Of a stretch of DNA of 39,015 nt, positions 203 to 37,417 are shown piece by piece (positions within the stretch are counted from its first letter, which is position 1; each line of letters starts with the position of its first letter). The translations under genes were made by a program, and so were the position numbers. The notes beneath the pieces are model-generated. The model ran no database searches, was not told where the DNA came from, and was given only the letters and a program-made list of their open reading frames with translations. The DNA comes from Candidatus Aenigmatarchaeota archaeon (GTDB taxonomy: Archaea; Aenigmatarchaeota; Aenigmatarchaeia; GW2011-AR5): the NCBI GenBank assembly GCA_018304565.1, contig JAGVVX010000007.1, forward strand, positions 1-39,015, written 5' to 3'.

Positions 203-238
203 CACTTCTAAAATTGAACTAGAAGAAACCTTCAAATC

Positions 239-3067
239 TTATTCGAGCAATATCCCTAGCTTCTGCGGGGCAGCCTGTTTGGCTTTTTTGTTTTCTGTCT
301 TGTTGGAATCAACTATTTCCACATGACAGTTGAATTCCGCTTCAAGAAATTTCTTGGCTTCTTTCAGTATCTGCATCTGCCAGTTTCTGGGAAGTATTGG
401 CTTTAGTTCGTTTAGCCTTTGATAAAGATTCTGGATAAAATTCACTGTTGCTTGCCCGTAGGCTTCACCTTGCATTATCTCTTTTGTTATTTCATTCATT
501 CCTTTGTCCTTGTTCCGCAGGACTTTGTTGTACACGCGGAATTTCCAGCCTTCGGCAACAAAAAGAGTTATCTTGTTTATCCTTTCCATCTTTGCTATTT
601 TTTTGATATCTTCGACACCTTTCATTGTATTCTCCAGGAGCGTTTCAGCTATTTCCGATTCTATATTTACAAGGTTCTGGTTATATCGCGGCCACTCCGC
701 GACCGATATGAAGCCTTTTCCGCCGGACATTTGCCAGAACTCCTCACACATGTGCGGTGTCAGAGGTGTCAGCATCTTTACAATGGCATTCAGTGTGGTT
801 TGCAACGCACGCCTGTTAGAATCTCTAACATTGCCCGTACGCTTCAGGTACCATTTAAGCAAGTTTGTGGAGTCAAAAAGTGCAAAGCTCACAGCCGTTC
901 TGAATTTCATCATTTCATAGTTCTTTGTAGATTCCTGTATAATCTTCTGCAGCTTGCTAAGAAGCCAAACATCAATGTTTCGCATCTCTTTTACACGGGC
1001 CTTTTTTGTATTCTTTATCAGGTCTTCAAGGAATTCGTACCTGCTTCGAAAACTCTTTATACCCTCAACGCGCCAGTCGGCGTCATCCATATTTTCATTA
1101 GATGCCGCAATGTTTATTCTCACCAAGTCGGCACCAAATTGCTTTATTATATCTCTGAGAGGCTGTATGTTGCCTTTTGACTTGCTCATTTTTTCGCCTT
1201 CGACATTCACATAACCGTTCGCACCAATTGCTTTTGGCCACATGTTTTCAGGCCATACAGCGACGTGATGGAAAAGGTAGAATGTAAGATGATTTTGTAT
1301 AAGGTCTTTCCCGCTGTTTCTCATGTCCATCGGGTAGAAGTAAACAAACTCGTCTCTCATTTGTTGAAGCAGTTTTAGATTCAGTTTTACAGACTTGGAG
1401 ACTTTTTTCACATCATCTTTGCCGAAGAAGATATAGTCAAAGACGCCGTCGGTTAGTTTTTTGGCCGGTATCTTTTTTTCATTAATTAGCCTTGCTATGG
1501 TGTAGTAGGCCATGTAAATTGTCGAGTCACTCAAAGTCTCAACAATCCACTCTTTATCCCACGGCAACGGTGTACCGAGTCCTGTCTTTCGCGCGCAAGC
1601 CTTGTCTTTCAACCAGTCAATTGTGTTAAGGAAGTTAGTTCTTGCTTCTTCGGGACAGAGTCTCATTCTCTCCAGGCATTTCCTCACAAGTTTCTTCCAG
1701 TTCTCGTCAGAAAATTTCAGGAACCACTGGTTTTCCAGTATTTTCACATAGTTCTTTGTTGTGCACCTGCAAACAACCTTGCCGGTTGTCTCCCACATTA
1801 TATCTGCTGCTCCCGCTTCTATAAAATCAAGAAATAGTTTTTCCTTTACTTCGCTTACTTTTGACCCTGCATATTCGCCGCAGTTTTCCCTTAGAACACC
1901 AAAGTGAAATTCCTTTTTGTAAACTATGCTCGTTGCTTCATCGAGTTTATCAATTTCTTTCGACGACATTATCCCTAGACGCTTCACAACTTCCATTGCC
2001 GGATGTTCACCAAACCCTTCGACTTTGACAACAGAAACAGGCTCTACGTCGTTTTTTGTCAGTCCGTAGAATTCCAGTTCGCCGCTTTCTATGAGCTCCT
2101 TAAGTGCCACCCAGTCGTATGGTGCGTGGCTTGGCACAGACATTACTATTCCTGTCGTATTTCCTGTATCAACAAAACTAGCAGGCAGTATAGAAATATC
2201 TTTATTGCCACAGGGGTCCTTTGCTTTTTTGCCTAGCAGCTCGTCACCTTTTATTCTTTCTATTATTTCGACTTTCTTCAACTGGTCTCCTAGTTTTTGT
2301 GCTGCAGATTCACTTATGACCCATTTCTCACCATCAACCTTGGCAACAACATATTCTGATTCCGGGTTTACCCAGATATTTGTCACCCCGTAAATAGTTT
2401 CAGGTCTCAAAGTAGCCGCGGGCAATATTTTATCACCCATCGAGAACTTTAGCAACGTATAGCCTACGGGCGATTCGCCTTCACCTTCGAGCCTGTCATG
2501 GTCGCCTGTAGGGGATTTGCAATGCGGACACCAAATGACAGGATGCGTGCCTTGGGTGACAAACCCCCTTTTCCTGAGGGTGTTATATTGCCATTCTATG
2601 AATCTGCTGAAAGTCGGATAAATTGCTGTGATGAAAACCCTGCGCCAGTCGATTGAGAAACCGACGCTTTTCATGTCTTCTATTATCTTTTTTGTCCAGA
2701 ACCGTGCAACATATTCAACGCCTTTGCCCTTGAAGTTCTTTATGTCCGTTTTCGTAGCACCATAGATACGAAAAGTCTCGAGCTGGCTTTTGTCGTTATT
2801 TCTTATGCGTTCTACAGTTCCAAGTATCGGCTCGCCTGTTGCGTGGAAGCCCTGAGCCAAAAGAACATTAAAGCCGCACATACGCTTGTACCGCGCGTAC
2901 GCATCAGTTCTGGTAAACGTGAATGTATGCCCAATATGCAGCCCGCCGTTGACGTAGGGTATTATAAGCGATGTAAAGAATTTCTTCCTCTTTTCTACAT
3001 CGGCTTCGAATATTTTCGATCGTTCCCATCTTTTTTGCCACTTCTTCTCTACCTTCTTGAAGTCCAT
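239..3067 (-). CDS. leuS: Leucyl-tRNA synthetase (archaeal type)
   Basis: 942 aa. Class I HIGH motif (GGLHIGHTF) and KMSKS motif (EKMSKSKGN). CP1 editing-domain-length insertion. Overall archaeal LeuRS pattern. Confidence 0.95.
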   Translation of the reverse strand: MDFKKVEKKWQKRWERSKIFEADVEKRKKFFTSLIIPYVNGGLHIGHTFTFTRTDAYARYKRMCGFNVLLAQGFHATGEPILGTVERIRNNDKSQLETFRIYGATKTDIKNFKGKGVEYVARFWTKKIIEDMKSVGFSIDWRRVFITAIYPTFSRFIEWQYNTLRKRGFVTQGTHPVIWCPHCKSPTGDHDRLEGEGESPVGYTLLKFSMGDKILPAATLRPETIYGVTNIWVNPESEYVVAKVDGEKWVISESAAQKLGDQLKKVEIIERIKGDELLGKKAKDPCGNKDISILPASFVDTGNTTGIVMSVPSHAPYDWVALKELIESGELEFYGLTKNDVEPVSVVKVEGFGEHPAMEVVKRLGIMSSKEIDKLDEATSIVYKKEFHFGVLRENCGEYAGSKVSEVKEKLFLDFIEAGAADIMWETTGKVVCRCTTKNYVKILENQWFLKFSDENWKKLVRKCLERMRLCPEEARTNFLNTIDWLKDKACARKTGLGTPLPWDKEWIVETLSDSTIYMAYYTIARLINEKKIPAKKLTDGVFDYIFFGKDDVKKVSKSVKLNLKLLQQMRDEFVYFYPMDMRNSGKDLIQNHLTFYLFHHVAVWPENMWPKAIGANGYVNVEGEKMSKSKGNIQPLRDIIKQFGADLVRINIAASNENMDDADWRVEGIKSFRSRYEFLEDLIKNTKKARVKEMRNIDVWLLSKLQKIIQESTKNYEMMKFRTAVSFALFDSTNLLKWYLKRTGNVRDSNRRALQTTLNAIVKMLTPLTPHMCEEFWQMSGGKGFISVAEWPRYNQNLVNIESEIAETLLENTMKGVEDIKKIAKMERINKITLFVAEGWKFRVYNKVLRNKDKGMNEITKEIMQGEAYGQATVNFIQNLYQRLNELKPILPRNWQMQILKEAKKFLEAEFNCHVEIVDSNKTENKKAKQAAPQKLGILLE

Positions 3068-3576: not shown

Positions 3577-3728
3577 GGGCGCGTAGCTCAGTTTGGATAG
3601 AGCATCAAGCTTTGGCGTGTAAGCCTTCTAAGCTGAGGGCCGCGGGTTCGAAAAGCCCTTTTCTTCCAGAGAAAAACGCTTGCGGAAAAGAAACCGGGAG
3701 AAGGGGTACGAAATTCCCGTCGCGCCCA
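3577..3728 (+). tRNA. tRNA-Arg(TCT) with two introns: ~15 nt inside the anticodon stem (about 3607-3621, position 28/29-29/30) and ~62 nt in the T-loop (about 3653-3714, position 59/60)
   Basis: Acceptor GGGCGCG/CGCGCCC+A. D arm GCTC-AGTTTGGATA-GAGC. After removing 15 nt the anticodon arm is TCAGC-CTTCTAA-GCTGA. Variable region GGGCC. T stem GCGGG...CCCGT with T-loop TTCGAA|T restored only after removing ~62 nt. The spliced length is 75 nt. Confidence 0.7.
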
Positions 3729-3760
3729 TTAATTATTGCAAAGGAACTTGCTTCTTTGAG

Positions 3761-3810
3761 ACCCCGGAGAGCAAAGCTCTCCGGGGTAATACTTCGGGCT
3801 TTAGCCCGAA
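3761..3810 (+). repeat. Two tandem perfect hairpins in the tRNA-Arg trailer
   Basis: ACCCCGGAGAGC-AAA-GCTCTCCGGGGT (12 bp, 3761-3787) and TTCGGGC-TTTA-GCCCGAA (3793-3810). Same CGGAGAxC...GxTCTCCG style as the hairpins in tRNA introns elsewhere in the window. Confidence 0.7.
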
Positions 3811-3878
3811 TATATTATTGATTATTAAAAAAACAGCCAATAGCAGCTTAAAAATCTTCCCAAATGTAATTATACAGT

Positions 3879-6476: not shown

Positions 6477-7723
6477 ATGTTTATTTCCCTTAGCAGTTTC
6501 AGGTCATTTTTACAGTAGAAATTTCTGACGTCATTTATGCCATGCTTCAGCGCGATTGTTCTTTCAAGACCTAATCCCCACGCCAAGACTGGAACATCTA
6601 TCCCCAGAGGTTGTGTAACTTCAGGCCTGAATATACCTGATCCGCCCAGTTCTATCCACTCTTTTTTCTCTTCAAAGTACACTTCCGGTTCTGCGGACAT
6701 TTCAGTGTAAGGGAAGTATGCCGGTCTGAATCTTATTTTTTTGAACCCCATGCGTGTATAGAACTCCTTTAGATACCCAAGCAAATCACGAAAAGTAACA
6801 TTCTCATCGACAACAATACCTTCTACTTGTGTGAATTCAGGCAGATGCTTGTAATCCAGTGTCTCATTCCTGAAAACTCTGCCTATGCAGAAAACTTTTG
6901 CAGGTGGTTTTAACTTACTTAGTTCTCTAACAGAAACTGCTGTCGCATGGGTACGCATTACCGCTTTCTTCGCTACTTCCCTGTTCCATTTATACCCCCA
7001 GCCAGACGAGCCTGTATTACCGCCCTTTTCATGCGCTTCTCTGACCTCATTCACAACGTTTTCTGCCGGTAATTTGCAGGATTCCGGGGTTTTCATATAA
7101 AATGTATCTGCCATTTCGCGTGCAGGATGATCTTGCGGCTGATAAAGCGCGTCGAAATTCCAGAAGCTTGATTCCAGCAAAGGTCCCCTGGCTTCCTTGA
7201 AACCAAGATCAAAGAATATGTTCCTTATCTTCTGTATATAGAAAGAAAGCAAGTGTGTTTTACCCGGATAGATTTTAGTGCCCGCGAGTTCGACATTATA
7301 AGGCTTCAGTTTTACTTGTTTCCAATATTTAGTTTTTATTAAATCTTCAGTGAGGTTTGCAACTTCTTGGCCTGCGAGTTTCTCAGCTTTCTTTACAGCC
7401 GTTTCTCTCTGTTTTTCTATGAGTTTTCTTTGTACTAGTACATCAAGCAAACGGTTTTCTACATGATCCCCGCCTGCAAGTTTCTTTAACGCTTCGTACT
7501 CCGGTATATTTTTCGGATTTCTGACAAGCGCAAGCTTGTTGTTTTCTATTTTAATCCAGCCATGTTTTTTCGCCCATTGCAAAGCTATGGAGAAGTTTTC
7601 TACCTTTTCCTTTGCTTCAGTGAAATCTACAGGCCCGGACATAAGCAATTCAATTAAACGCATTTCAGGCAGTCCATACTTGAGATAATTCCTTCCTTCA
7701 TCAGTCAGTGTATATTCTTGCAT
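6470..7723 (-). CDS. pheS: Phenylalanyl-tRNA synthetase alpha subunit
   Basis: 417 aa. Class II core with motif 2/3-like segments (FRNETLDYKHLPEFTQVEG; GLGLERT). Directly upstream of pheT. Confidence 0.9.
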   Translation of the reverse strand: MQEYTLTDEGRNYLKYGLPEMRLIELLMSGPVDFTEAKEKVENFSIALQWAKKHGWIKIENNKLALVRNPKNIPEYEALKKLAGGDHVENRLLDVLVQRKLIEKQRETAVKKAEKLAGQEVANLTEDLIKTKYWKQVKLKPYNVELAGTKIYPGKTHLLSFYIQKIRNIFFDLGFKEARGPLLESSFWNFDALYQPQDHPAREMADTFYMKTPESCKLPAENVVNEVREAHEKGGNTGSSGWGYKWNREVAKKAVMRTHATAVSVRELSKLKPPAKVFCIGRVFRNETLDYKHLPEFTQVEGIVVDENVTFRDLLGYLKEFYTRMGFKKIRFRPAYFPYTEMSAEPEVYFEEKKEWIELGGSGIFRPEVTQPLGIDVPVLAWGLGLERTIALKHGINDVRNFYCKNDLKLLREINMW

Positions 7724-7780
7724 GATATCAATCTTGTTTATTCATATTTTAAAAGTAAAGAAAAAAGCATATTTATACGA

Positions 7781-7903
7781 GGAATACCACCTGTCTTTAG
7801 GCGGCGGTATTATTATTCGTGGTATTCCGGTATAAAAGAATCCACATGTGTTATTAGTGGTATTTCACAGAAATACCACCATCTTCAGGCCGTGGATTCT
7901 TTT
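7781..7903. promoter_or_regulatory. Palindromic module pair in the pheS/glyS divergent intergenic region (R1 copy 7781-7833, R2 copy 7834-7903)
   Basis: R1: GGAATACCAC-N28-GTGGTATTCC followed by GGTAT. R2: nested AAAAGAATCCAC...GTGGTATTTC-ACA-GAAATACCAC...GTGGATTCTTTT. Read on the minus strand, R1 is followed by TCGTATAAATAT (TATA-like) about 45 nt before the pheS ATG. Confidence 0.6.
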
Positions 7904-7930
7904 TATAAAACTTCTTGGGAAAGTTAGTTC

Positions 7931-9430
7931 ATGTCTAGCGCAGAGAAAATAGAAGACATAGCAAAACGCAAAGGTTTCTTCTGGCTTTCTTCGGAAATAT
8001 ACGGCGGCATGTCGGGTTTCTACGACTATGGCCATCTGGGCGCCTTAATGAAAAGGAAATGGGAAAACCTTTGGCGCAGTTATTTCCTCTCACTTGACGA
8101 TAATTTCTATGAAATATCGCCTGCAACAATAATGCCGGAAGGCGTCTTTGTCGCGTCTGGGCATTTGGAAAGTTTTGTAGACCCCGTTGTAAAATGCAAG
8201 AAATGCGGCCACATGGAACGGGCTGACCATATACTTGAAGAGGAGCTCAAGGAAAACTTTGAGGGCGTATCAAGTGAAGAACTTGAAAAGCTCATAAAGC
8301 AGCACGGGATAAAATGCAGCAAATGTCGGGGCCCTTTGGAAGAAGTAGGCACTCTAAATATGATGTTTCCTCTGAATGTAGGCACAACAAAAGTAACCAA
8401 GGCGTATCTTGTTCCTGAGACAGCCCAGGAAGCTTTTGTGAATTTCAAAAGGCAGTTCGAAGTCTTGAGAAAGCAGCTGCCTTTGGGCCTTGCTGTAGTA
8501 GGAAAAGCCTACAGGAATGAGATATCACCTAGAAACCTTTTGCTGCGCATGCGGGAGTTTACTCAGGCAGAACTTCAGATTTTTTTCGATCATGATAACG
8601 TTGGCGAACATGAAGAATTTGATGAAATAAAAGACTACAAATTGTGTTTATTCCCTACCGCCAACAAACAAACAGGCAAAGTTGAAGAGGTATCTTGTTG
8701 GGCTATTATTGAAAAGATGGACCTGCCAAAATTCTATGTCTATCATCTAGCTAAGATACAGCAGTTCTACTTGGATATACTGAAAATACCAAAAGAAAAA
8801 TTCAGGCTTCGAGAACTGTCTGAAGAAGAACGGGCTTTTTACAATAAAATCCATTGGGATATAGAGGTCGAACTAAATGATCTGGGTTTTAAGGAGTTAG
8901 GCGGTTGCCACTACAGGACCGATCATGATCTAAGCGGCCATCAAAAAATATCAAAACAAGACATGACAGTGAACATAGAAGGAAAAGAAATCCTTGCACA
9001 CGTCCTGGAACTTTCCTTTGGTGTAGACAGGAACATTTACGCCCTGCTTGACATAGCTTATGCCGAGGAAAAAGATCGCACTGTATTAAGGCTTCCTTTT
9101 GGTGCCGCACCTTATGATGCAGCCATACTTCCACTTGTAAATAAAGAAGGCATGCCGGGCCTTGCTGAAAAAATAAAAGATGTCCTGAAAGCGAAAGGCT
9201 TCACCGTATTTTATGACTATTCCGGCTCGATAGGCCGCCGTTATCGCCGTATGGATGAAATAGGCACGCCTTTCTGCATTACAGTAGACACAGGCTCTCT
9301 CAGCAGCAAGGACGTAACTATTCGCGACAGAGATTCAATGAAGCAGATACGGGTAGGAATAGAACACCTTCCAATGGTTTTGGAACAACTGATAAATTAC
9401 AGGATAGAATTCACAGAAGCTGAGAAATGA
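7931..9430 (+). CDS. glyS: Glycyl-tRNA synthetase (archaeal/eukaryal alpha2 type)
   Basis: 499 aa. N-terminal KRKGFFWLSSEIYGGMSGFYDYGHLG signature. Class II motifs. C-terminal anticodon-binding domain pattern. Confidence 0.9.
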   Translation: MSSAEKIEDIAKRKGFFWLSSEIYGGMSGFYDYGHLGALMKRKWENLWRSYFLSLDDNFYEISPATIMPEGVFVASGHLESFVDPVVKCKKCGHMERADHILEEELKENFEGVSSEELEKLIKQHGIKCSKCRGPLEEVGTLNMMFPLNVGTTKVTKAYLVPETAQEAFVNFKRQFEVLRKQLPLGLAVVGKAYRNEISPRNLLLRMREFTQAELQIFFDHDNVGEHEEFDEIKDYKLCLFPTANKQTGKVEEVSCWAIIEKMDLPKFYVYHLAKIQQFYLDILKIPKEKFRLRELSEEERAFYNKIHWDIEVELNDLGFKELGGCHYRTDHDLSGHQKISKQDMTVNIEGKEILAHVLELSFGVDRNIYALLDIAYAEEKDRTVLRLPFGAAPYDAAILPLVNKEGMPGLAEKIKDVLKAKGFTVFYDYSGSIGRRYRRMDEIGTPFCITVDTGSLSSKDVTIRDRDSMKQIRVGIEHLPMVLEQLINYRIEFTEAEK

Positions 9431-10535: not shown

Positions 10536-10643
10536 ACTCAGGATACCACCTATCTTTAGATGCTGGAGGAAACCATTAAACCATCAGTAATTACAAGTGG
10601 TTTCCTGGTATCACAACCATCGTTTGAAAACGATGGTTGTGAT
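10536..10643 (-). promoter_or_regulatory. Upstream cassette A (inverted copy of cassette B at 35305-35406), directly abutting the CBS/HPF-like gene start
   Basis: Read toward the gene it has three parts. First, the 16-bp palindrome ATCACAACCATCGTTT/AAACGATGGTTGTGAT plus ACCAGGAAACCAC. Then a ~35-nt variable AT-rich (TATA-like) spacer. Then ATCTAAAGATAGGTGGTATCCTGAGT-ATG. The proximal 26 nt is identical to cassette B, and the distal ~47 nt is near-identical. Confidence 0.7.
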
Positions 10644-10709
10644 GTCAATCATCGTAGCAGATGTATTTCCTCTCTCAGATATAAATAAATTAGTTAGATA
10701 TGAGCTAAA

Positions 10710-10958
10710 ATGACAGTTATTGACGTCAGGCAGACTATTTGCAGGGCAGAAATAGTAGATATCGCAAGAAGGCGCGGTTATTCATACAGGCTATTGGAGC
10801 CCGGAACGGGTGTGCTGATGAAAGGGGAAGACGTTTTGTATCAGGCTTTTACAGGAAGCGACAGCAACGGCTACAGTGTCGTGAGATTGAGATTTTTTGG
10901 CGGAAAAGGAGAAGAAGACAAAGAACTGGAAGGCGAACTATTTTCAATAAACATTTAA
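10710..10958 (+). CDS. Hypothetical protein (82 aa)
   Basis: Balanced composition. ATATAAATAAAT TATA-like box about 25 nt upstream of the ATG. The overlapping frame 10739..10990 is R-rich and looks like an off-frame artefact. No family recognised. Confidence 0.4.
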   Translation: MTVIDVRQTICRAEIVDIARRRGYSYRLLEPGTGVLMKGEDVLYQAFTGSDSNGYSVVRLRFFGGKGEEDKELEGELFSINI

Positions 10959-11000
10959 GATGCCACTTGCCTTCAGGCCGTGGTCATTGAAAAACACCCT

Positions 11001-12487: not shown

Positions 12488-12566
12488 AAAATCGCCCGGT
12501 TGCCTGTGATTTGTAACTTTGTACTGCAGCTGGGTAGTTCTTGTATCCATAATTATGCTTATACAA

Positions 12567-12704
12567 GGAATACCACCAGCCTTTAGACGGTGATATTATT
12601 AGTGGTATTCCGGTATGCTCAGAAAGCAAAGCTTTCTGGCATGCCAAAATTGCTCTGCAATTTTGAGCATAAGAGGATCCACAAATAAGATTTGTGGATC
12701 CTCT
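12567..12704. promoter_or_regulatory. Palindromic module array in the hydrolase/trmY divergent intergenic region
   Basis: R1 copy at 12567-12616 (GGAATACCAC-N25-GTGGTATTCC-GGTAT, ~85% identical to 7781-7833). Hairpin ATGCTCAGAAAGC-AAA-GCTTTCTGGCAT at 12615-12642. Hairpin CAAAATTGC-TCT-GCAATTTTG at 12645-12665. 16-bp perfect palindrome AAGAGGATCCACAAAT-AAG-ATTTGTGGATCCTCTT at 12670-12704. Confidence 0.65.
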
Positions 12705-12732
12705 TTATAAGCATCTGCGTTATTTTTTAATT

Positions 12733-13361: not shown

Positions 13362-13610
13362 TTATTTGGATTCTGAGCATCCGTTATTTCGGCACACACA
13401 TGTTAACACAATATCTGGATTATCCGGGCCACATTTAGCTATAGAAGCATATGCAACAGTCGTACATCTATCACAAAACTCTACGCAGTCCGCATCTCTG
13501 TTGCAAGAAAGTGTATTTGTTAAATTCTTTTGCGATCCAGTAGAAAGCGCATAAATTAAAACAACAACTAAGATAGTTATTGCAACAATCACTCCAGTTT
13601 GTTTCTTCAT
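13362..13610 (-). CDS. Small membrane-anchored or secreted cysteine-rich protein (82 aa, 8 Cys)
   Basis: N-terminal hydrophobic helix (GVIVAITILVVVLIYAL) followed by a Cys-rich ~55-aa domain. No family recognised. Confidence 0.5.
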   Translation of the reverse strand: MKKQTGVIVAITILVVVLIYALSTGSQKNLTNTLSCNRDADCVEFCDRCTTVAYASIAKCGPDNPDIVLTCVCRNNGCSESK

Positions 13611-13669
13611 TGTTACTATCTTACAAAACAGAAATATATATATATGTATACAAGATCGAAGTATTGTTT

Positions 13670-14392
13670 ATGATTACTCAAAATACACCTCTTCTTAAAA
13701 TAAATGAAGATATTGCAGAGTTCGTTGGCGCTTTAATTGGAGACGGATATATTTACACTAACAAAAACAAATATATCATAGGATTTACTGGAAATCCTAT
13801 CACAGATAAAGAATATTATGAATATCTAAGAAGATTGATAAATATAGCTTGGAAAAAAGAAGTCAAAATAAAATTAAGAGGGAGAGGCATTAGAATTGTT
13901 ATTAATTCTAAGAATATAGTTAATTTTTTGATAAATGAAATACAAATTAAACACGGAATCAATAAAAGCGAATCTGTAGTAATACCAGAAGTCATGACCA
14001 AAGACTGGAGTTTGACTAAATTAGTAATAAGAGGTATTGTTGATACAGATGGCTCTGTTTTTGTTTCTAAAAAGCCCGGCATAGATATGTACCCTTCTAT
14101 AGAAATTACAACATCGAGCCCTGAATTAGCTTTTCAACTAAGGAATATCCTATTAAGCCGTGGTTTTAGAGTTGCGAAAATATGGAGTTATAAATCTAAA
14201 TTAAGTAAAAGAATTTCTTATAAAGTTCCTCTAAACGGACTTGAAAATGTTGGTAAATGGTTAAAAGAAATAGGCTTTTCCAATCCTTACAAACTGAAAA
14301 GAGCAAAAGAAATATGGGATGGGAGGGATTTGAACCCTCGACATTCCCGACGTAACACAAAAGTGTTATGCTCCACGGTTCCTGCTCAGTAG
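13670..14392 (+). CDS. Free-standing double-motif LAGLIDADG homing endonuclease-like protein
   Basis: Two LAGLIDADG motifs (FVGALIGDGYI and VIRGIVDTDGSV). Start taken at the internal ATG (MITQNTPLL). The last ~25 codons read antisense through the 3' part of the convergent tRNA gene. Confidence 0.85.
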   Translation: MITQNTPLLKINEDIAEFVGALIGDGYIYTNKNKYIIGFTGNPITDKEYYEYLRRLINIAWKKEVKIKLRGRGIRIVINSKNIVNFLINEIQIKHGINKSESVVIPEVMTKDWSLTKLVIRGIVDTDGSVFVSKKPGIDMYPSIEITTSSPELAFQLRNILLSRGFRVAKIWSYKSKLSKRISYKVPLNGLENVGKWLKEIGFSNPYKLKRAKEIWDGRDLNPRHSRRNTKVLCSTVPAQ

Positions 14393-14447
14393 GACTTCAG
14401 CTTCACATCTTTCGATCGTGTGCTCTCCCATGCTGAGCTACCATCCC
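14315..14447 (-). tRNA. Intron-containing tRNA, class II-like (long variable arm); tentative Ser(CGA) with ~50-nt intron at 37/38
   Basis: Minus strand: acceptor GGGATGG/CCATCCC+A. D arm GCTC-AGCATGGGA-GAGC. T arm GAGGG-TTCAAAT-CCCTC. The best anticodon arm is ACACG-AT-CGA-A|intron|T-TGTGT followed by a 15-nt variable arm. The isotype is uncertain: the position-26 spacing is awkward, and discriminator A is unusual for Ser. Confidence 0.65.
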
Positions 14448-14890: not shown

Positions 14891-14998
14891 TCTCGAACCG
14901 CCGACCCTCACGTCTCTGTCCTGAGATTTATCTGTGTCCCGAAGAACTCCGTTCTTCAAGATAACAGCGTGATGCTCTACCTGCTGAGCTATCGAGGC
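14891..14998 (-). tRNA. tRNA-Asn(GTT)-like 5' portion (acceptor 5' strand through T-loop, with ~48-nt intron at 37/38) lacking any 3' T-stem/acceptor strand; split-tRNA half or relic
   Basis: Minus strand: GCCTCGA-TA-GCTC-AGCAGGTA-GAGC-A-TCACG-CTGTTA|intron|A-CGTGA-GGGTC-GGCGG-TTCGAG, then AAGCCCTTT... The expected CCGCC-TCGAGGC is not found in the following ~450 nt or elsewhere in the window by eye. Confidence 0.55.
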
Positions 14999-25717: not shown

Positions 25718-25796
25718 TTGGCAAGAGCCATCTAAATAGGTTTCTCTGCCCGTGATTCGGAGATGCAGCTTCTCCCGAGATCAAGAACGATATGAT

Positions 25797-26215: not shown

Positions 26216-26296
26216 CCTTTCTTTTCTAAAAGAAAGGCCTTTGTATGCTCAAAGAACCAAAGGTTCTTTGGCATCTCAGAAACCTTTGGTTTCTGA
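26216..26296. repeat. Three tandem perfect hairpins immediately upstream of the pilus-operon start codon
   Basis: CCTTTCTTTT-CT-AAAAGAAAGG (26216-26237). ATGC(T)CAAAGAACC-AAA-GGTTCTTTGGCAT (26245-26274). TCAGAAACC-TTT-GGTTTCTGA (26276-26296). Confidence 0.7.
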
Positions 26297-26445
26297 AGAT
26301 TTCCCAAAGAAAATTCAAAGACCTTCCATTTTTTCTTGATATCTTAACTTAATTATTATAATCTCAGACGGTATATAAAGATTGTCAAAATTGTATAAAA
26401 TCAAAGAAATTGACTTTTTATTTTCTTTTGCTTTTAGTAAAAGAC

Positions 26446-26976
26446 ATGACTAAGCGGTATTCTGAACGCGATGTACACAGAGCATTGGCTGGATACCGTG
26501 CTCACCACGATTCTATAGTACACAGGTTAATTCCATTGATTCCGCGCATCATGGATACGGTTGCAACCTTCAATCAGGATTATATGATTGCTACACAAAT
26601 TGACAGGGTCACGCAAGGAGATGTAGAAGCAGGAACTCTTACTGAAAAAGGCTTTATGTGCACAGAATTTTTCGCATATGCGGGCGGTAAAAAACCTAAA
26701 GATAAACCTATGCATGAGGTTTCCCTTGGCATTTTGTTAGATGTAGAGAGGAGGCCATTTGTTGCTGTTTCATCCGCAAAAGAGGCGGCAGAATATCTTA
26801 TGTCCGAGTGCCAGTTAGAGAGGAATTTAGAAGCAGGAAAAATGTTAAAATCTCCGCATACATGGTTTTTATTGTACGAAGAAGCTGAAGTTTTGGAAGG
26901 TGTAGATTTATCTGCTTTTGGTGTTTCAGAAACAGGCACGACAACTTCAATAATCAAACAAAGGAAAAAGCTGTAA
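26446..26976 (+). CDS. Hypothetical protein (~176 aa)
   Basis: Long ORF, start moved to MTKRYSE. GGTATATAAAG TATA-like box ~70 nt upstream. No family recognised. Less K-rich than its neighbours. Confidence 0.5.
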   Translation: MTKRYSERDVHRALAGYRAHHDSIVHRLIPLIPRIMDTVATFNQDYMIATQIDRVTQGDVEAGTLTEKGFMCTEFFAYAGGKKPKDKPMHEVSLGILLDVERRPFVAVSSAKEAAEYLMSECQLERNLEAGKMLKSPHTWFLLYEEAEVLEGVDLSAFGVSETGTTTSIIKQRKKL

Positions 26977-26981
26977 AAGAA

Positions 26982-27380
26982 TTAGCGTTCAATCCTTCCA
27001 AATCTAGAAAACCTTATCCCTAATTTCCCTGCTGGTTCGATGACGGTAGTGCCTTCATGTTCGTAGGTTTGAAGCCAACCCTCTCTTTTTGCTTCACCGA
27101 CATACCGTTTTTGTCTTTCAGGCAATTCATTTAGCGGCACGCCAGCAAACCACCCTATTTTCCCGGCGATAAGGGTGAAATATGGCATCAGCGCCTCTGA
27201 TCCTGCAGAAGGCAAACCAAGGCCAAAGCAACTCAACCTAGCTATTTGACCGTCTGCCAAAGGCGTGCCATCCAAGTTATACATCCTGTCAAGTTCTCTC
27301 GTAGCATCGCTTCTGTAAACTGCACTAAAACCGTTTTTCGCTTTATCCAATGGAATACAGTCTACTGGCATTTGTCTCAC
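26982..27380 (-). CDS. Hypothetical protein (132 aa)
   Basis: ORF only. G/R/L-rich, locally higher GC. No family recognised. Confidence 0.45.
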   Translation of the reverse strand: MRQMPVDCIPLDKAKNGFSAVYRSDATRELDRMYNLDGTPLADGQIARLSCFGLGLPSAGSEALMPYFTLIAGKIGWFAGVPLNELPERQKRYVGEAKREGWLQTYEHEGTTVIEPAGKLGIRFSRFGRIER

Positions 27381-27395
27381 TTGGTAAGAAAGAAC

Positions 27396-29033: not shown

Positions 29034-29201
29034 CTCAAATTCCTCCTCTACAAGTCATTTTCTACATCTTGCACAAACTGTGCATGGAAGTATACGACCT
29101 AAAAGCTTAAAAATGTTACTTTTCCGCAAGTTTTAAGAGTGTAGGAACCATTCTACAAGCATGGCAAGCCACATGGAGACGGGACGAAATATACAGCCGC
29201 C

Positions 29202-29438
29202 TTGAATGCAGTCAGAGGTCAGTCCATGCTTGGATTGGTAACAGGCATCATTTCTCTAGAAGAGTATCAGGCGTTCGTTAGGCTGAGAGGCGATGCGAGA
29301 ACCGTGTCAAACGGCAGAGAGGTTCCTGTCTTGCCGTCAGAATGCGATGTTGCAACTACACGCAGAGTTGTCGGGAGGCTCATAGATACTTATGGATTAC
29401 AGGTTCCGGAAGGCGAGCTGGTTCTGAAACAGCTATAA
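29202..29438 (+). CDS. Hypothetical small protein (78 aa)
   Basis: ORF only, GC-richer than its surroundings. No motif recognised. Confidence 0.3.
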   Translation: MNAVRGQSMLGLVTGIISLEEYQAFVRLRGDARTVSNGREVPVLPSECDVATTRRVVGRLIDTYGLQVPEGELVLKQL

Positions 29439-29439
29439 T

Positions 29440-30330
29440 TTACCAGCCTTTGACGGCCCTGATTATGTCTCTTTTTGTCATGCTCTTTATTTCCCTTTCA
29501 TCGACCACCGGCAGCTCTATGTCGACTTTTTTCTTTGTTATCACCAGCACCGGCTTCTCGACGATCTCTGAAAACTTTATCAAGTAGTCTTCATTCTTCT
29601 CTATCTGTCTTGGGTTCTCCTCTGCGTCAGAGAAAACAAGGAATTTTTGCGTCTTTGCTATTATGTTAAATGGCGCTTGATGGACTAAGTCCGTGTCAAA
29701 ACCCATTCTTTGCAGGTCTTGTGAAATATCCCGTTCAAATCTTGTCAAAGGGCTGTTTTTTTCTTCTGGAAACTCAGTTTTCCAGAAGCTCATTGGGCTT
29801 GTTATCTTTCCTATCAGCCTCTCCAGCCTCTTGGCTGTATCCAAGTGCAGCAGCATCTTCTTCTTTTCATGTTCGTAAACGCTCTTTTTGGTGATCTTGA
29901 CCTTCTTGGCAAGCTGCGACTGGCTAAGACCTAGTTGCTTCCTACCTTCTCTTAGTTTTTCTGAGTCCACTTCCGCAAATAATCCGCCCTTAAACCTGTA
30001 TATTAGCGGCCAGTTGTCACGCACAAGTATGTTCTCAAGGGTCTTTGGCGTGAACGTTGGTATGTCAAATCTGTCGTAGACTATATCGTCGTAAAGGTTC
30101 TCCTTCCTTGTGTGCAGCCCTACAACGGCGGGAGACGCAAACAAGCTGCAGGCAAGTGTCTTCATGTTTGCAGCCTGCTCTTTCTGGAGCGAGTCAACGT
30201 TCTCAAGGACCTTAAGCAGCAGTATTTCAGACCTCTTGGCTATTATGTCAAAGCAGCCCCTGTACTCCGAGTAATTGTAGTCCGCTTTCTCAAGTATGCC
30301 TTCAACATCGTGCTTGAGCATAGTAATCAT
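29440..30330 (-). CDS. Archaeal putative transcriptional regulator with central XRE-type HTH (COG1395-like)
   Basis: 296 aa. HTH segment LGLSQSQLAKKVKITKKSVYEHE flanked by conserved N- and C-terminal domains typical of this archaeal family. Confidence 0.65.
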   Translation of the reverse strand: MITMLKHDVEGILEKADYNYSEYRGCFDIIAKRSEILLLKVLENVDSLQKEQAANMKTLACSLFASPAVVGLHTRKENLYDDIVYDRFDIPTFTPKTLENILVRDNWPLIYRFKGGLFAEVDSEKLREGRKQLGLSQSQLAKKVKITKKSVYEHEKKKMLLHLDTAKRLERLIGKITSPMSFWKTEFPEEKNSPLTRFERDISQDLQRMGFDTDLVHQAPFNIIAKTQKFLVFSDAEENPRQIEKNEDYLIKFSEIVEKPVLVITKKKVDIELPVVDEREIKSMTKRDIIRAVKGW

Positions 30331-30393: not shown

Positions 30394-30649
30394 GGGCCGG
30401 TAGCTTAGCCTGGTAAGAGGAGAAACTACATTCCTGCGGAGAACGAAGTTCTCCGAGGTCTCAGAGAAGCTCCGCTTCTCTGCAGATCTCCCTCTACCCT
30501 CTTCCTAGAAAGAAGTAAGGTTGGAAGGAGAATAAGATATCTCTTCTGAGGAAAGAGCACCTGTCTTATACGACCTGTTCGGATAATAAACTGAATCCAA
30601 ACAGAACTAGGCTAGCAGGGGGTCGTGAGTTCAAATCTCATCCGGCCCA
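30394..30649 (+). tRNA. tRNA-Ile(TAT) with two introns: ~140 nt in the D arm (about 30418-30557, position 22/23-24/25) and ~43 nt at 37/38 (about 30571-30613)
   Basis: Acceptor GGGCCGG/CCGGCCC+A. D arm GCTT-AGCCTGGT-AAG|...|C. Position 26 is A. Anticodon arm CCTGT-CTTATA|...|A-GCAGG. Variable region GGGTC. T arm GTGAG-TTCAAAT-CTCAT. Spliced length is 73 nt. The canonical intron folds into a 10-bp hairpin. Confidence 0.65.
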
Positions 30650-30655
30650 TCCTTC

Positions 30656-30781
30656 CCTTTCTTTCAGAAAGAAAGGTCTGGATCAACCCCAAAGAAACCA
30701 TGTAATATCTTGGGAGAAGCTGCTTCTCCGAGATCCCGGAATCCAAAGGATTTCGGGAATTCCAAAAAGCCGCGCTTTTTG
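30656..30781. repeat. Four tandem short perfect hairpins in the tRNA-Ile trailer
   Basis: CCTTTCTTT-CAG-AAAGAAAGG (30656-30676). GGAGAAG-CTG-CTTCTCC (30713-30729). CCCGGAATCC-AAA-GGATTTCGGG (30735-30757). CAAAAAGC-CGC-GCTTTTTG (30763-30781). Confidence 0.7.
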
Positions 30782-32194: not shown

Positions 32195-32285
32195 GGGCTT
32201 GTAGTCTAGCGGCTATGACTTTTTATTAGTAGAATACGCTACCCTCACATGGTAGAGATCCCCAGTTCGAATCTGGGCAAGCCCA
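32195..32285 (+). tRNA. tRNA-Val(CAC) with ~18-nt non-canonical intron between D stem and anticodon stem (about 32220-32237, position 25/26)
   Basis: Acceptor GGGCTTG/CAAGCCC+A. D arm GTCT-AGCGGCTA-TGAC. Then TTTTTATTAGTAGAATAC. Then G-CTACC-CTCACAT-GGTAG-AGATC-CCCAG-TTCGAAT-CTGGG. Confidence 0.75.
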
Positions 32286-32944
32286 TACATTTTCAAATAC
32301 TTTCTTTTTGAAAGAGCTTGTTTTATCCGTTTTTTATTTTTGAATCCTATATTTACAATATAATTGTGAATATCTTGTTTTCTTTGCAAGGATATGCGCC
32401 ATATAACCCTTCTTTTATAATCACGTTTTTTATTGGTAAAAGAATATATTGTAGGAGAAAATCCTAACATTTTTAATAGAGACTTTATTTCGTAAGCAAA
32501 AATTTTGTTTGTGCAGTTCCACGATAAAATCAGATAATAACTATTACCACTTTCACGCCAATATACAGTCCCATCTGTATCAATTAAACCACGTAAAAAG
32601 TTTTTACCACATATTTTACTTGAAAATACAAATTTAGGTACTCTAAGTTTATCTAACTTTGGGCCTTTTGGAAAGCCAGTCTTTAATAAAAGATTGTAAG
32701 TATTTTTACAAGCTATTCTTAATTCAATGACATTATAAGGATCGCCTCTTTTTACAATACGAAAAATATGGAAATCAAAAACTTTCGCATATAACTTCTT
32801 GACGTAATTGAAATATTGTTTCTCGGTGCTCGATGTTCCGTATCCGACTTCATTTGGTTTAGATGCAAGCCAACCATCACCTGCATGAATACCACATAAT
32901 TCAGCATAGTTTCCTATTAAGCTTCTATCGACTAATCTAACCAT
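32213..32944 (-). CDS. Free-standing double-motif LAGLIDADG homing endonuclease-like protein (paralog of 13670..14392)
   Basis: Motifs ELCGIHAGDGWL and FLRGLIDTDGTV. The last ~24 codons read antisense through the tRNA-Val body (stop in the D-loop). Confidence 0.85.
   Translation of the reverse strand: MVRLVDRSLIGNYAELCGIHAGDGWLASKPNEVGYGTSSTEKQYFNYVKKLYAKVFDFHIFRIVKRGDPYNVIELRIACKNTYNLLLKTGFPKGPKLDKLRVPKFVFSSKICGKNFLRGLIDTDGTVYWRESGNSYYLILSWNCTNKIFAYEIKSLLKMLGFSPTIYSFTNKKRDYKRRVIWRISLQRKQDIHNYIVNIGFKNKKRIKQALSKRKYLKMYGLAQIRTGDLYHVRVAYSTNKKS
32263..32287 (+). repeat. Direct repeat copy 1 (inside tRNA-Val: T-stem to 2 nt past the discriminator)
   Basis: CAGTTCGAATCTGGGCAAGCCCATA, identical to 33018-33042. 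Confidence 0.85.
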
Positions 32945-35304: not shown

Positions 35305-35406
35305 ATCAACAACCATCGTCTGAAAACGATGGTTGTGATACCAGGAAACCACAGTTATATTTGTGACTTACTGGTTCCATATCTAAAGATAGGTGGTATC
35401 CTGAGT
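35305..35406 (+). promoter_or_regulatory. Upstream cassette B (inverted copy of cassette A at 10536-10643), abutting the IPK start codon
   Basis: ATCA(A)CAACCATCG...CGATGGTTGTGAT palindrome plus ACCAGGAAACCAC. Then a TATA-like GTTATATTTG. Then ATCTAAAGATAGGTGGTATCCTGAGT-ATG. Confidence 0.7.
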
Positions 35407-36207: not shown

Positions 36208-36821
36208 TGCAAACAGAGCATATAGAAGTTGAACGGAGAGCCAGAGGAACATTCCTTCCTCCCGGAGCAGAGCCGCTTTATACTGCACATATATTTGACG
36301 TTTACACTGTTGCTCAGCCTTCTTTAATGGAAAGAATCCGCTGGGCAAGAGTTTCGTATTTCCAACTAGTGAAAAGCCGAAGAGAAGTTACAAGAAAAAC
36401 ATTCACTCATGGAGAATACGTAGAGTCAGAATTGGATGAAAAGCCCACGGCGTATATTGCCCGTCTTCTTAAGAAAGGAGGCTGTCCGCGCGTTATTGTT
36501 GCAGGCAGAAGGCACGCGTATAATGTGCATGGTCTCACCGTGTGCAACGATAGAATTATCAGAGCTACCATGAAAGGAATTGAAGATTTAGGCGCCTGGA
36601 CAGAGATGGAAAGGCTCGTGCATTCAGCAGATGAAATACCCGATGCAAGACAAGAAGTTTATGACGGGTTTTTGAGGGTTGGCGTGGCAAGGGACAGGCT
36701 AGTCATAGAACCTTATCCTGTCTTGAACCTTAAAGCCAACGGCCGTGTTGCTGGCAGATTAGTTTCTACTTCAACTTCTTCCCAAGAGGATGCTTTAGCA
36801 GCTCCTCGACTGAAACAATAA
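36207..36821 (+). CDS. Hypothetical protein (~204 aa) translationally coupled to IPK
   Basis: Its ATG overlaps the IPK TGA (TGATG). It is the only long ORF in this interval. R-rich and GC-richer than its neighbours. The last ~18 codons overlap the convergent IDI gene. Confidence 0.5.
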   Translation: MQTEHIEVERRARGTFLPPGAEPLYTAHIFDVYTVAQPSLMERIRWARVSYFQLVKSRREVTRKTFTHGEYVESELDEKPTAYIARLLKKGGCPRVIVAGRRHAYNVHGLTVCNDRIIRATMKGIEDLGAWTEMERLVHSADEIPDARQEVYDGFLRVGVARDRLVIEPYPVLNLKANGRVAGRLVSTSTSSQEDALAAPRLKQ

Positions 36822-37218
36822 GCCATGGCGTGTAGATTTTCTGGTTTCTTATTATATCTTTCAGCAATTCGCCAAGAGAAACCCATTTGTAGCCATAAGC
36901 GTGCTGTTCACTGGGTTTCAGTTCGCCATTAAACTCTGCTATCAGCAACCGGCAGTGCTCGTTTTCGCATTTCTCGCCGTATTCAGCAAAATAATTGAAA
37001 CCGCCTATATCTTCAACTTTCAGGCTTTCAATTCCCCATTCGCCTAGAAGGAACCGGCTGGCCGCTTCCTGCATCGTCTCGTCCCTGTTGCCAAGGTGTA
37101 ATGGATGGCTTGCGCCTGCCAGGTCCCACAGCCTGTCAAAAAGCCTGTGCTTCCTGTGCTGGAGAAGTATTTTCCTGTCGCTGTTGTAAATCAACATTGT
37201 GAAGGTCCCCTTTTTCAT
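36766..37218 (-). CDS. idi: Nudix-fold protein, likely short type-1 isopentenyl-diphosphate isomerase
   Basis: WDLAGASHPLHLGNRDETMQEAASRFLLGEWGI, ENEHC and TPW segments parallel the type-1 IDI segments (W.N..C.HP, ENEVC, SPW). Adjacent to the mevalonate genes. Confidence 0.6.
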   Translation of the reverse strand: MKKGTFTMLIYNSDRKILLQHRKHRLFDRLWDLAGASHPLHLGNRDETMQEAASRFLLGEWGIESLKVEDIGGFNYFAEYGEKCENEHCRLLIAEFNGELKPSEQHAYGYKWVSLGELLKDIIRNQKIYTPWLIVSVEELLKHPLGKKLK

Positions 37219-37273
37219 CTACAAGCAGAAGCATTTGTTCTTCCATATAAGCACCAGTAACGATTATAAACAC

Positions 37274-37369
37274 AATCCACCACAAAAATGTGGTGGTATT
37301 TCTTTGAAATACCACAGATCATATATGTGGATTTGTTTATACAGGCAACCATTGTTTAAAAACAACGGT
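37274..37369. promoter_or_regulatory. R2-type nested palindrome plus degenerate ACCATTGTT/AACAACGGT hairpin in the IDI/hydrolase divergent region
   Basis: AATCCAC-N12-GTGGTATTTC-TTT-GAAATACCAC-N11-GTGGATT (37274-37333), the same architecture as 7834-7903. Overlapping CCACCACA-AAAA-TGTGGTGG. ACCATTGTT-TAAA-AACAACGGT at 37348-37369. Confidence 0.65.
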
Positions 37370-37417
37370 ATGCCATGTATCAATAAGGTTTTTATCTTTA
37401 AAGGCCTTCCTTTTAGG

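Follow-up and report, generated by a model that had tools for sequence, protein, structure and literature searches.

Palindromic half-sites between genes of an Aenigmatarchaeota genome as probable stems of a small, non-autonomous transposable-element family

What are the ATACCAC/GTGGTAT half-sites that recur in five intergenic regions of a compact Candidatus Aenigmatarchaeota (DPANN) MAG? In the 39,015-nt stretch of DNA analysed here (the window), which is ~88% coding according to our gene list, the initial annotation described them as related half-sites, with two recurring architectures, R1 and R2, and offered two readings, namely an operator system for a dimeric DNA-binding protein or a MITE-like family that donates promoters. 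We conclude, with a probability of about 0.88, that the half-sites are the stems of a small, non-coding and non-autonomous transposable-element family in this genome. The window pheS is 100% identical to the pheS of JACPDL010000005.1 (GCA_016184005.1), and the same PheS is found on the ENA scaffold ANAN16-1...scaffold_2635. The genes beside the five regions are mutually unrelated housekeeping genes (Table 1).

A sequence check located all of the half-site sequences quoted in the initial annotation at the coordinates given there. ATACCAC has 12 matches on both strands of the window against 2.18 +/- 1.31 expected, a number reached by 0 of 100 shuffles. The statement that the half-sites occur only between genes holds for 10 of these 12, which lie in the five named intergenic regions, and fails for the matches at 32889 and 38822, which are in coding sequence (the latter in an ORF running off the end of the window). 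CCAC-N8-16-GTGG was found 9 times against 1.6 expected, with 7 of the 9 matches intergenic, and the long pattern ATACCACC-N3-CTTTAG-N18-46-TTCC-N0-1-GGTAT 4 times against 0 expected, corresponding to the four copies described as carrying CTAAAG. The R1 copies, reported as ~85% identical, show 83% identity over 48 nt; for the R2 pair, complementarity amounts to 78% over 82 nt.

The repeat finder and the nhmmer profile revealed that the half-sites are not independent, but form the stems of five copies of one repeat family (W-A to W-E, Table 1), and that R1 and R2 are the left and the right half of a single composite. The R2 described at 37274 is indeed present, but it belongs to the complete, diverged and inverted copy W-C, and the regions at 10536 and 35335 turned out to be reverse-complement copies of one ~105-bp element. 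The right-end hairpin of W-D is an additional hairpin of the family, beyond those first described. The copies are 92-146 bp long and have no coding capacity for a transposase; the exception in length is W-D, with 452 bp and an ORF of 82 aa that matches no family. We detected no homologs of this ORF outside its own species, and it therefore offers no handle on a larger element. Three 82-aa ORFs were considered as a common cargo gene and rejected, as they are unrelated to one another.

Table 1. Copies of the repeat family in the window, their parts, neighbours and junctions.
Feature	Coordinates	Strand	Neighbouring genes	Structure	Junctions and position	E-value
W-A	7777..7906	+	pheS and glyS, divergent	complete composite (R1 hairpin and R2 double hairpin)	left flank TTTAT; right end ...CTTTTTAT followed by AAAAC, giving the glyS TATA box, 24 nt before ATG 7931	2.6e-40
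W-B	12563..12708	+	alpha/beta hydrolase gene and trmY	composite variant: R1 half, two unrelated small hairpins (12619-12671), short GGATCCAC hairpin	inside the trmY TATA box; right end 24 nt before ATG 12734	
W-C	37266..37378	-	Nudix/IDI-like gene and second hydrolase gene	diverged complete composite, inverted	left flank TTGAT; right end TTTAT followed by AATCG, 19 nt before ATG 37246	4.5e-13
W-D	10536..10987	+	CBS-domain protein gene and tRNA-splicing endonuclease gene (endA)	452-bp insertion	between the CBS-protein start codon and the end of endA; TCAT on both sides	
W-D, E3 left module	10536-10643					
W-D, orphan ORF	10710-10958			82 aa, with its own TATA		
W-D, right-end hairpin	10960-10983			GCCAC-N13-GTGG		
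W-E	35305..35406	-	mevalonate-pathway genes and isopentenyl-phosphate kinase (IPK) gene	102 bp, same subfamily as the E3 module	in the mevalonate operon, directly upstream of the IPK ATG (35407); ends with the hairpin ACAACCATCG...CGATGGTTGT, then TGAT	

The canonical unit (~130 bp) consists of the left hairpin module R1, GGAATACCAC...GTGGTATTCC, which encloses the short hairpin ATACCACC-TGTCT-TT-AGAC-GGTGGTAT, and the right double-hairpin module R2, AAAGAATCCAC...GTGGATTCTTT, which encloses GTGGTATTKC-N3-GMAATACCAC and the short hairpin CCACCATCT-TT-AGATGGTGG. These two short hairpins, one close to either end, match in type and orientation, with the general form ATACCACC-(T)NTCT-TT-AGAN-GGTGG(T)AT (the right one is ATACCACC-ATCT-TT-AGAT-GGTGGAT), and both are enclosed by the larger R1 and R2 stems. 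Like subterminal palindromes in the same orientation at both ends are the hallmark of PATE-type elements, and W-D exhibits them too, as ATACCACCTATCTTTAGAT... and ATGCCACTTGCCTTCAGGCCGTGG. CTTTAG/CTAAAG, which had been taken for a separate box, is the loop and centre of the short hairpin CCACC-N-TCT-TT-AGA-N-GGTGG, while the supposedly TATA-like GTATAA after R1 is merely the left junction of the element (...CCTTGT^ATAA; here and below, a caret marks the border between element and flank). W-A, treated as single-stranded DNA, folds with -24.5 kcal/mol, compared to -9.8 +/- 2.6 for shuffled sequences (z = -5.6). Among six aligned copies, 93-95% of the cells are paired, and with either of two pairing schemes, four pairs have changed on both strands of the stem (TTTC/GAAA versus TTGC/GCAA, for instance); palindromy is retained across diverged copies.

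The window contains other small intergenic hairpin families, at 12619-12671, 26244-26296, 3766-3793, 30438-30465, 30713-30740 and 25757-25781 (examples are CAGAAAGC..GCTTTCTG plus ATGCCAAAATTGC..GCAATTTTGAGCAT, and GGAGAAC..GTTCTCC). The pair located inside W-B (12619-12671) recurs inverted at 26244-26296. These families may be further mobile or terminator-like modules.

Seamless empty sites were identified in sister strains or relatives for four of the five copies (W-B, W-C, W-D and W-E). W-B is absent from locus L096 (gcTTAT^AAGCATC), which matches the window at 99.64% identity along 11,854 bases with no other gap and continues at 100% identity beyond the insertion; L096 reads ...ccataattatgcTTAT^AAGCATCTGCG..., where the window has ...gcTTAT^ACAAGG...CCTCTTTAT^AAGCATCTGCG.... 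The remaining assemblies of the same locus (L090-L099) represent mostly the same strain with the same insertions, and only L096 is informative. The W-C site is empty (acgATTAT^CAATAAGG) in the sister MAG L100 and in L101, which comes from another sample. The W-E site is empty in L104 (IPK 87% identical; GATGATTAT^GAGAAAGCC), with a distance of 6 nt between the mevalonate decarboxylase-like gene and IPK, while W-E is present at the sister MAG locus L100 with its hairpin region expanded. The W-D site is empty in L020 (pheS 85% identical; gactTTCAT^TGAAACAcc), with 11 nt separating endA from the CBS gene. W-A is also absent from L020: the spacer between pheS and glyS is ~90 nt long there and has the same two TATA boxes, each as far from its start codon as in the window, and the joined flanks read gcataTTTAT^AAAACTTCT in the window and gtatgcTTAT^AAAACTTCT in L020. 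The contig L002 of the same species (~95-96% identical) aligns to the window exactly up to W-A, where it carries a differently sequenced unit in the opposite orientation with the same junction features (TTCAT^AC... and ...GGTGGAATTCGTTTTTA). The copies of the family are thus mobile or polymorphic insertions.

The unit in L002 occupies positions 15-140, upstream of pheS, and is ~125 bp long (TTCAT^ACGGATTCG... ...CCACCGTCTGAAGACAGGTGGAATTCGTTTTTA), with different internal hairpins (GCAGGATGC-N27-GCATCCTGC); its right end points toward pheS, and the contig begins 14 nt before it. This suggests that there are several subfamilies and that the same spacer was hit repeatedly.

The same comparisons revealed further differences between the window and its sister strains. 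The region 26411-27392, with two hypothetical ORFs, has no counterpart in L100, which has 228 nt instead. The same holds for 29121-29440 (19 nt instead), a segment of ~320 nt in the 406-nt spacer that separates the thermosome gene from the HTH_3 gene. Two LAGLIDADG_3 homing-endonuclease-like ORFs, 13580-14392 (+) and 32213-32944 (-), lie in patches of low G+C (0.32-0.35). L100 lacks the second ORF together with ~740 nt around it, and there the adjacent amino-acid-kinase gene encodes 215 aa versus 195 aa in the window. The sole 'tRNA-Leu' reported by ARAGORN (32195-32285) overlaps this second insertion. Additionally, tRNA-like genes with long or multiple intervening sequences are located at 3577-3728 (+), 30394-30649 (+), 14315-14447 (-) and 14935-14998 (-), with clear 5' ends (GGGCGCGTAGCTCAG..., GGGCCGGTAGCTTAG...) and 3' acceptor/T-arm ends separated by 150-250 nt; ARAGORN detects none of the four, and Rfam recognizes just the pair at 14.3-15.0 kb, of which one is 133 nt long. 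Immediately 3' of the first gene, L002 has 813 nt versus 195 nt in the window (3647-3841). The Nudix/IDI-like gene at 36766-37246 (-) appears frameshifted near 37215, with the N-terminal MEEQMLLLVDEKGD... in another frame; it is intact (176-180 aa) in the sister MAG.

A metagenome scan with the shared pattern returned 8 loci. R1 and R2 are invariably joined in them, forming a unit of 126-130 bp with the layout ...T-N-A-T^ACAAGGAATACCACCTGTCTTTAGACGGTGGTATTATTAGTGGTATTCCGGTAT-CAAAGAATCCAC...GCAATACCACCATCTTTAGATGGTGGATTCTTTTTAT^A.... Five of the 8 loci come from the metagenome Ga0187892 and contain near-identical composites of 126-130 bp in differing flanks of higher G+C (48-50%), next to archaeal genes unrelated to those of the window (M48 peptidase, Mrp/ParA, aquaporin, Nre, PolX); further copies were found in L082 and L086. 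For this species, the analysis covered ~60 kb. Many of the copies found in the scan lie at contig ends, and in one scaffold that represents the window's own locus, W-A is spanned by a stretch of N. Contig breaks and N gaps are a typical effect of multi-copy repeats on assemblies. Pairs of ATACCAC and GTGGTAT within 80 nt are missing from 79 pheS loci of other Aenigmatarchaeota and DPANN archaea, and scans of viral contigs with two element patterns returned nothing. The family appears to be restricted in lineage, which we count as support for a mobile element.

At L082 (~1850-1930, minus strand) and L086 (~219-300, plus strand), the right end of a composite is followed by TTTAT^AGTTCTACAAGGAAA..., which resembles the left end of a related element. 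Elements may be arranged there in tandem or nested.

Altogether, short sequences with no transposase, found at multiple loci of more than one genome and present or absent with intact empty sites, exhibit the general characteristics of non-autonomous elements; the four empty sites and the occurrence in multiple copies and genomes bear out the 'MITE-like family' of the initial annotation in this general sense. Which type of transposase moves them is suggested by the junctions. The left flank is T-N-A-T in all 12 copies of the junction table (TTAT 6, TCAT 4, TGAT 2), and all 12 start with AC. Composites end with TTTAT in 7 of 7 cases with a known right end, including W-C and L082, the left flank of which is TTGAT; outside the composites, the right ends are TCAT (W-D) and TGAT (W-E). 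Of 9 complete insertions (W-D counted once), 8 are directly followed by A. All four empty sites fit an insertion 3' of T-N-A-T, and a 2-bp duplication of AT is also compatible with them. Like subterminal hairpins, a 5' target, a constant right terminus and seamless empty sites favour a Y1 (HUH) TnpA; all four agree with what has been published on archaeal IS200/IS605 elements and on the non-autonomous PATEs derived from them (PMC3119063). Left-end targets TTTAA and TTTAT have been reported for IS200/IS605 elements of Sulfolobus islandicus (PMC10640517). We propose that the elements are probably PATE-like and moved in trans by a single-strand transposase of the IS200/IS605 type (Y1/HUH TnpA) via single-stranded intermediates, where TnpA would recognize the subterminal hairpins and insert the element 3' of a short target without duplicating it. 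Neither the window nor the neighbouring loci that we examined contained a transposase (TnpA, TnpB or other) with matching ends.

While we favour mobilization by a Y1 TnpA on these grounds, a serious rival is a classical MITE, i.e. a deletion derivative of an insertion sequence with a DDE transposase, bounded by terminal inverted repeats and by a 2-5 bp duplication at T-N-A-T(A). Of 9 complete copies, 6 have one and the same tetranucleotide to their left and right (in W-D it is the non-consensus TCAT), the duplication at W-B could be as long as TTATA, and the ends align, though just imperfectly, as inverted repeats (ACAAGGAATACCACC / ATAAAAAGAATCCACC). However, the W-C site is TTGAT^AATCG when empty, yet its filled right end is TTTAT; W-E has TCAT versus TGAT, and in L082 a left flank of TTGAT contrasts with a right end of TTTAT. 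AT(A) alone is common to the two sides at W-C, W-E and L082, and AT is the sole duplication common to all copies, which gives no clear support to a target duplication of fixed length. Moreover, the end hairpins are direct rather than mirrored in orientation, and no related insertion sequence is known. We regard a DDE-type origin as possible, but on balance unlikely.

The composites occupy a peculiar position relative to promoters. TATA boxes with a gap of 21-22 nt before the ATG are found upstream of pheS, glyS and trmY, and the same arrangement in L020 and in the empty site of L096 indicates leaderless transcripts. The right end of the composite, together with its flank, re-creates TTTATAA(A/G) at the distances from the glyS, trmY and IDI/Nudix start codons listed in Table 1, and 23 nt before the ATG of the M48 peptidase gene in L083. 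With the elements removed, the window has 169 intergenic T-N-A-T sites, of which only 9 (5%) are correctly oriented and precede a start codon by 19-25 nt, compared to 3 of 3 window composites (p ~1.5e-4), which means that the element lands in TATA boxes or survives only there; the enrichment could in part reflect survival of insertions rather than choice of the site. The preferred target TT(T)AT^A corresponds to the core of the archaeal TATA box, and since the element itself ends with ...TTTAT, composites would land in TATA boxes and rebuild them at the gap of 21-22 nt. With the box rebuilt at the correct distance from a leaderless start codon, the host gene would stay expressible. This position in TATA boxes with regeneration, seen in four cases, could be the one feature of possible wider interest.

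As to the suggestion that the family donates promoters, it does not apply to glyS and trmY, where the TATA box is already there at the unoccupied site and is split and then rebuilt, so that the element donates none. It may apply to the W-D/W-E type, which abuts the start codon and would have to supply the upstream signals. This subfamily sits on TCAT, which reads ATGA on the opposite strand, and adjoins the start codon on its 5' side; it displaces the earlier upstream signals, which in L020 comprise a GAGGTG Shine-Dalgarno sequence 5 nt before the ATG. Both copies have AGGTGGTATCC 11 nt upstream of the start codon; they also share AGGTGGTATCCTGAGT ahead of the ATG and an inner loop that is AT-rich in part. 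The SD-like AGGTGG could serve as a ribosome-binding site and the AT-rich loop as a TATA box; these putative promoter and ribosome-binding roles are deduced from position.

We also speculate, as a tentative and rather doubtful extension, that the composite is a promoter-homing transposon, in which target preference and not survival directs insertion into TTTAT^A, perhaps because promoter DNA that is melted or bent by TBP exposes its single strand. If so, the box would be rebuilt on one side and a second TATA-like sequence provided on the other, the element could spread through a compact DPANN genome free of cost, and new or bidirectional promoters and new 5' leaders could be seeded.

Could the palindromes act at the RNA level? 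The hairpins could be kept as a 5'-UTR switch that hides GGTGGT, as a stabilizer or terminator, or as small or omega-RNA-like genes, with the family maintained for that purpose. The strong fold and the compensatory changes are consistent with such a role, as is the ability of one R1 ATACCAC to pair with either of two GTGGTAT copies, and W-E must be transcribed, since it lies inside an operon. Nonetheless, transposition of single-stranded DNA predicts hairpins equally well, the copies occur in both orientations relative to the neighbouring genes, and most composites are upstream of the TATA box and thus outside the mRNA. Presence or absence between near-identical strains also argues against an essential role, and no Rfam family matches: a search of Rfam 15 reported only two tRNA matches in the window and nothing better than E = 0.3 across 7700-7960. 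We consider an RNA function as the reason for the family improbable, while a secondary RNA effect of the operon-internal W-E is possible.

The operator reading proposes that the palindromes bind a dimeric transcription factor, for instance the HTH_3/COG1395-like protein encoded in the window (29440-30330), which would co-regulate the adjacent genes. The palindromes do overlap or abut the BRE/TATA regions of several genes. However, the sites are missing at the same promoters of relatives with intact genes (strains 99.6%, ~90-96% and ~77% identical; L020, L096, L100 and L104), and the 79 related pheS loci mentioned above contain no such pairs. What is conserved are whole units of ~130 bp with their loops and spacers rather than half-sites alone, the neighbouring genes are functionally unrelated both here and in another genome, and the same unit adjoins unrelated genes in another archaeal population. 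We reject the operator reading as the origin of the sites. Two further candidates were dismissed, namely replication-origin (ORB) boxes (GGAAACCAC-like words), as the sites spread over 30 kb in five spacers, are polymorphic and have no orc1/cdc6 in the scanned ORFs, and an H/ACA or C/D guide RNA for R2 (lower stem, internal loops of 11-12 nt, upper stem), which has no K-turn, ACA, C/D boxes or Rfam match.

These results remove a false lead, in that there is no regulon or operator code at these half-sites, and document an active family of small mobile elements in an Aenigmatarchaeota population despite the highly reduced genomes, with one insertion (W-B) polymorphic between strains that are 99.6% identical. 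The family also accounts for the breaks at promoters in assemblies of these genomes. Should TATA targeting with regeneration prove true, it would represent a transposon adapted to archaeal promoter architecture and would contribute to the turnover of promoters and leaders. From the conserved T-N-A-T target, the TAM of any partner TnpB nuclease could additionally be predicted.

Several known systems resemble the family described here. PATEs have been described in Haloquadratum walsbyi as non-autonomous derivatives of IS200/IS605 (IS1341-type) elements, with similar palindromes near the termini, no inverted terminal repeats and no target duplication (PMC3119063). Like PATEs, the window family is archaeal, short and non-coding, has palindromes alike at both ends and strain-specific insertions, probably lacks an obligatory target duplication and adjoins a conserved short terminal or target oligonucleotide. 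Unlike them, it resides in a DPANN host, shows no sequence similarity to the described PATEs and has no cognate tnpA/tnpB element among the sequences we examined, and its composites lie in TATA boxes and rebuild them. Among bacterial counterparts, REPs are extragenic palindromes in clusters of alternating orientation, derived from IS200/IS605-like ends, and REP/BIME units are mobilized by RAYT transposases; the Correia elements of Neisseria insert at TA, and promoter elements at their ends affect neighbouring genes. Both differ from the window family in their bacterial hosts, sigma-70 promoter logic, sequences and enzymes, and we saw no RAYT-like gene here. Our literature search found no description of MITEs in Aenigmatarchaeota or of archaeal MITEs targeted to TATA boxes. 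Judged against Rfam and the literature, we treat the family as new and its kind as known, MITEs and PATEs being well known in archaea. The fixed-length duplication and the clean terminal inverted repeats that define MITEs are not clearly evident in it, but it shares with prokaryotic and DPANN MITEs the small size, the intergenic location, the multiple copies and, as we propose, a transposase supplied in trans. A census of MITEs reported high densities in some DPANN genomes, such as 146/Mb in Altiarchaeum and 105/Mb in a Woesearchaeal genome, and the 5 copies in the 39 kb of the window (~128/Mb) are within this range (PMC11602168).
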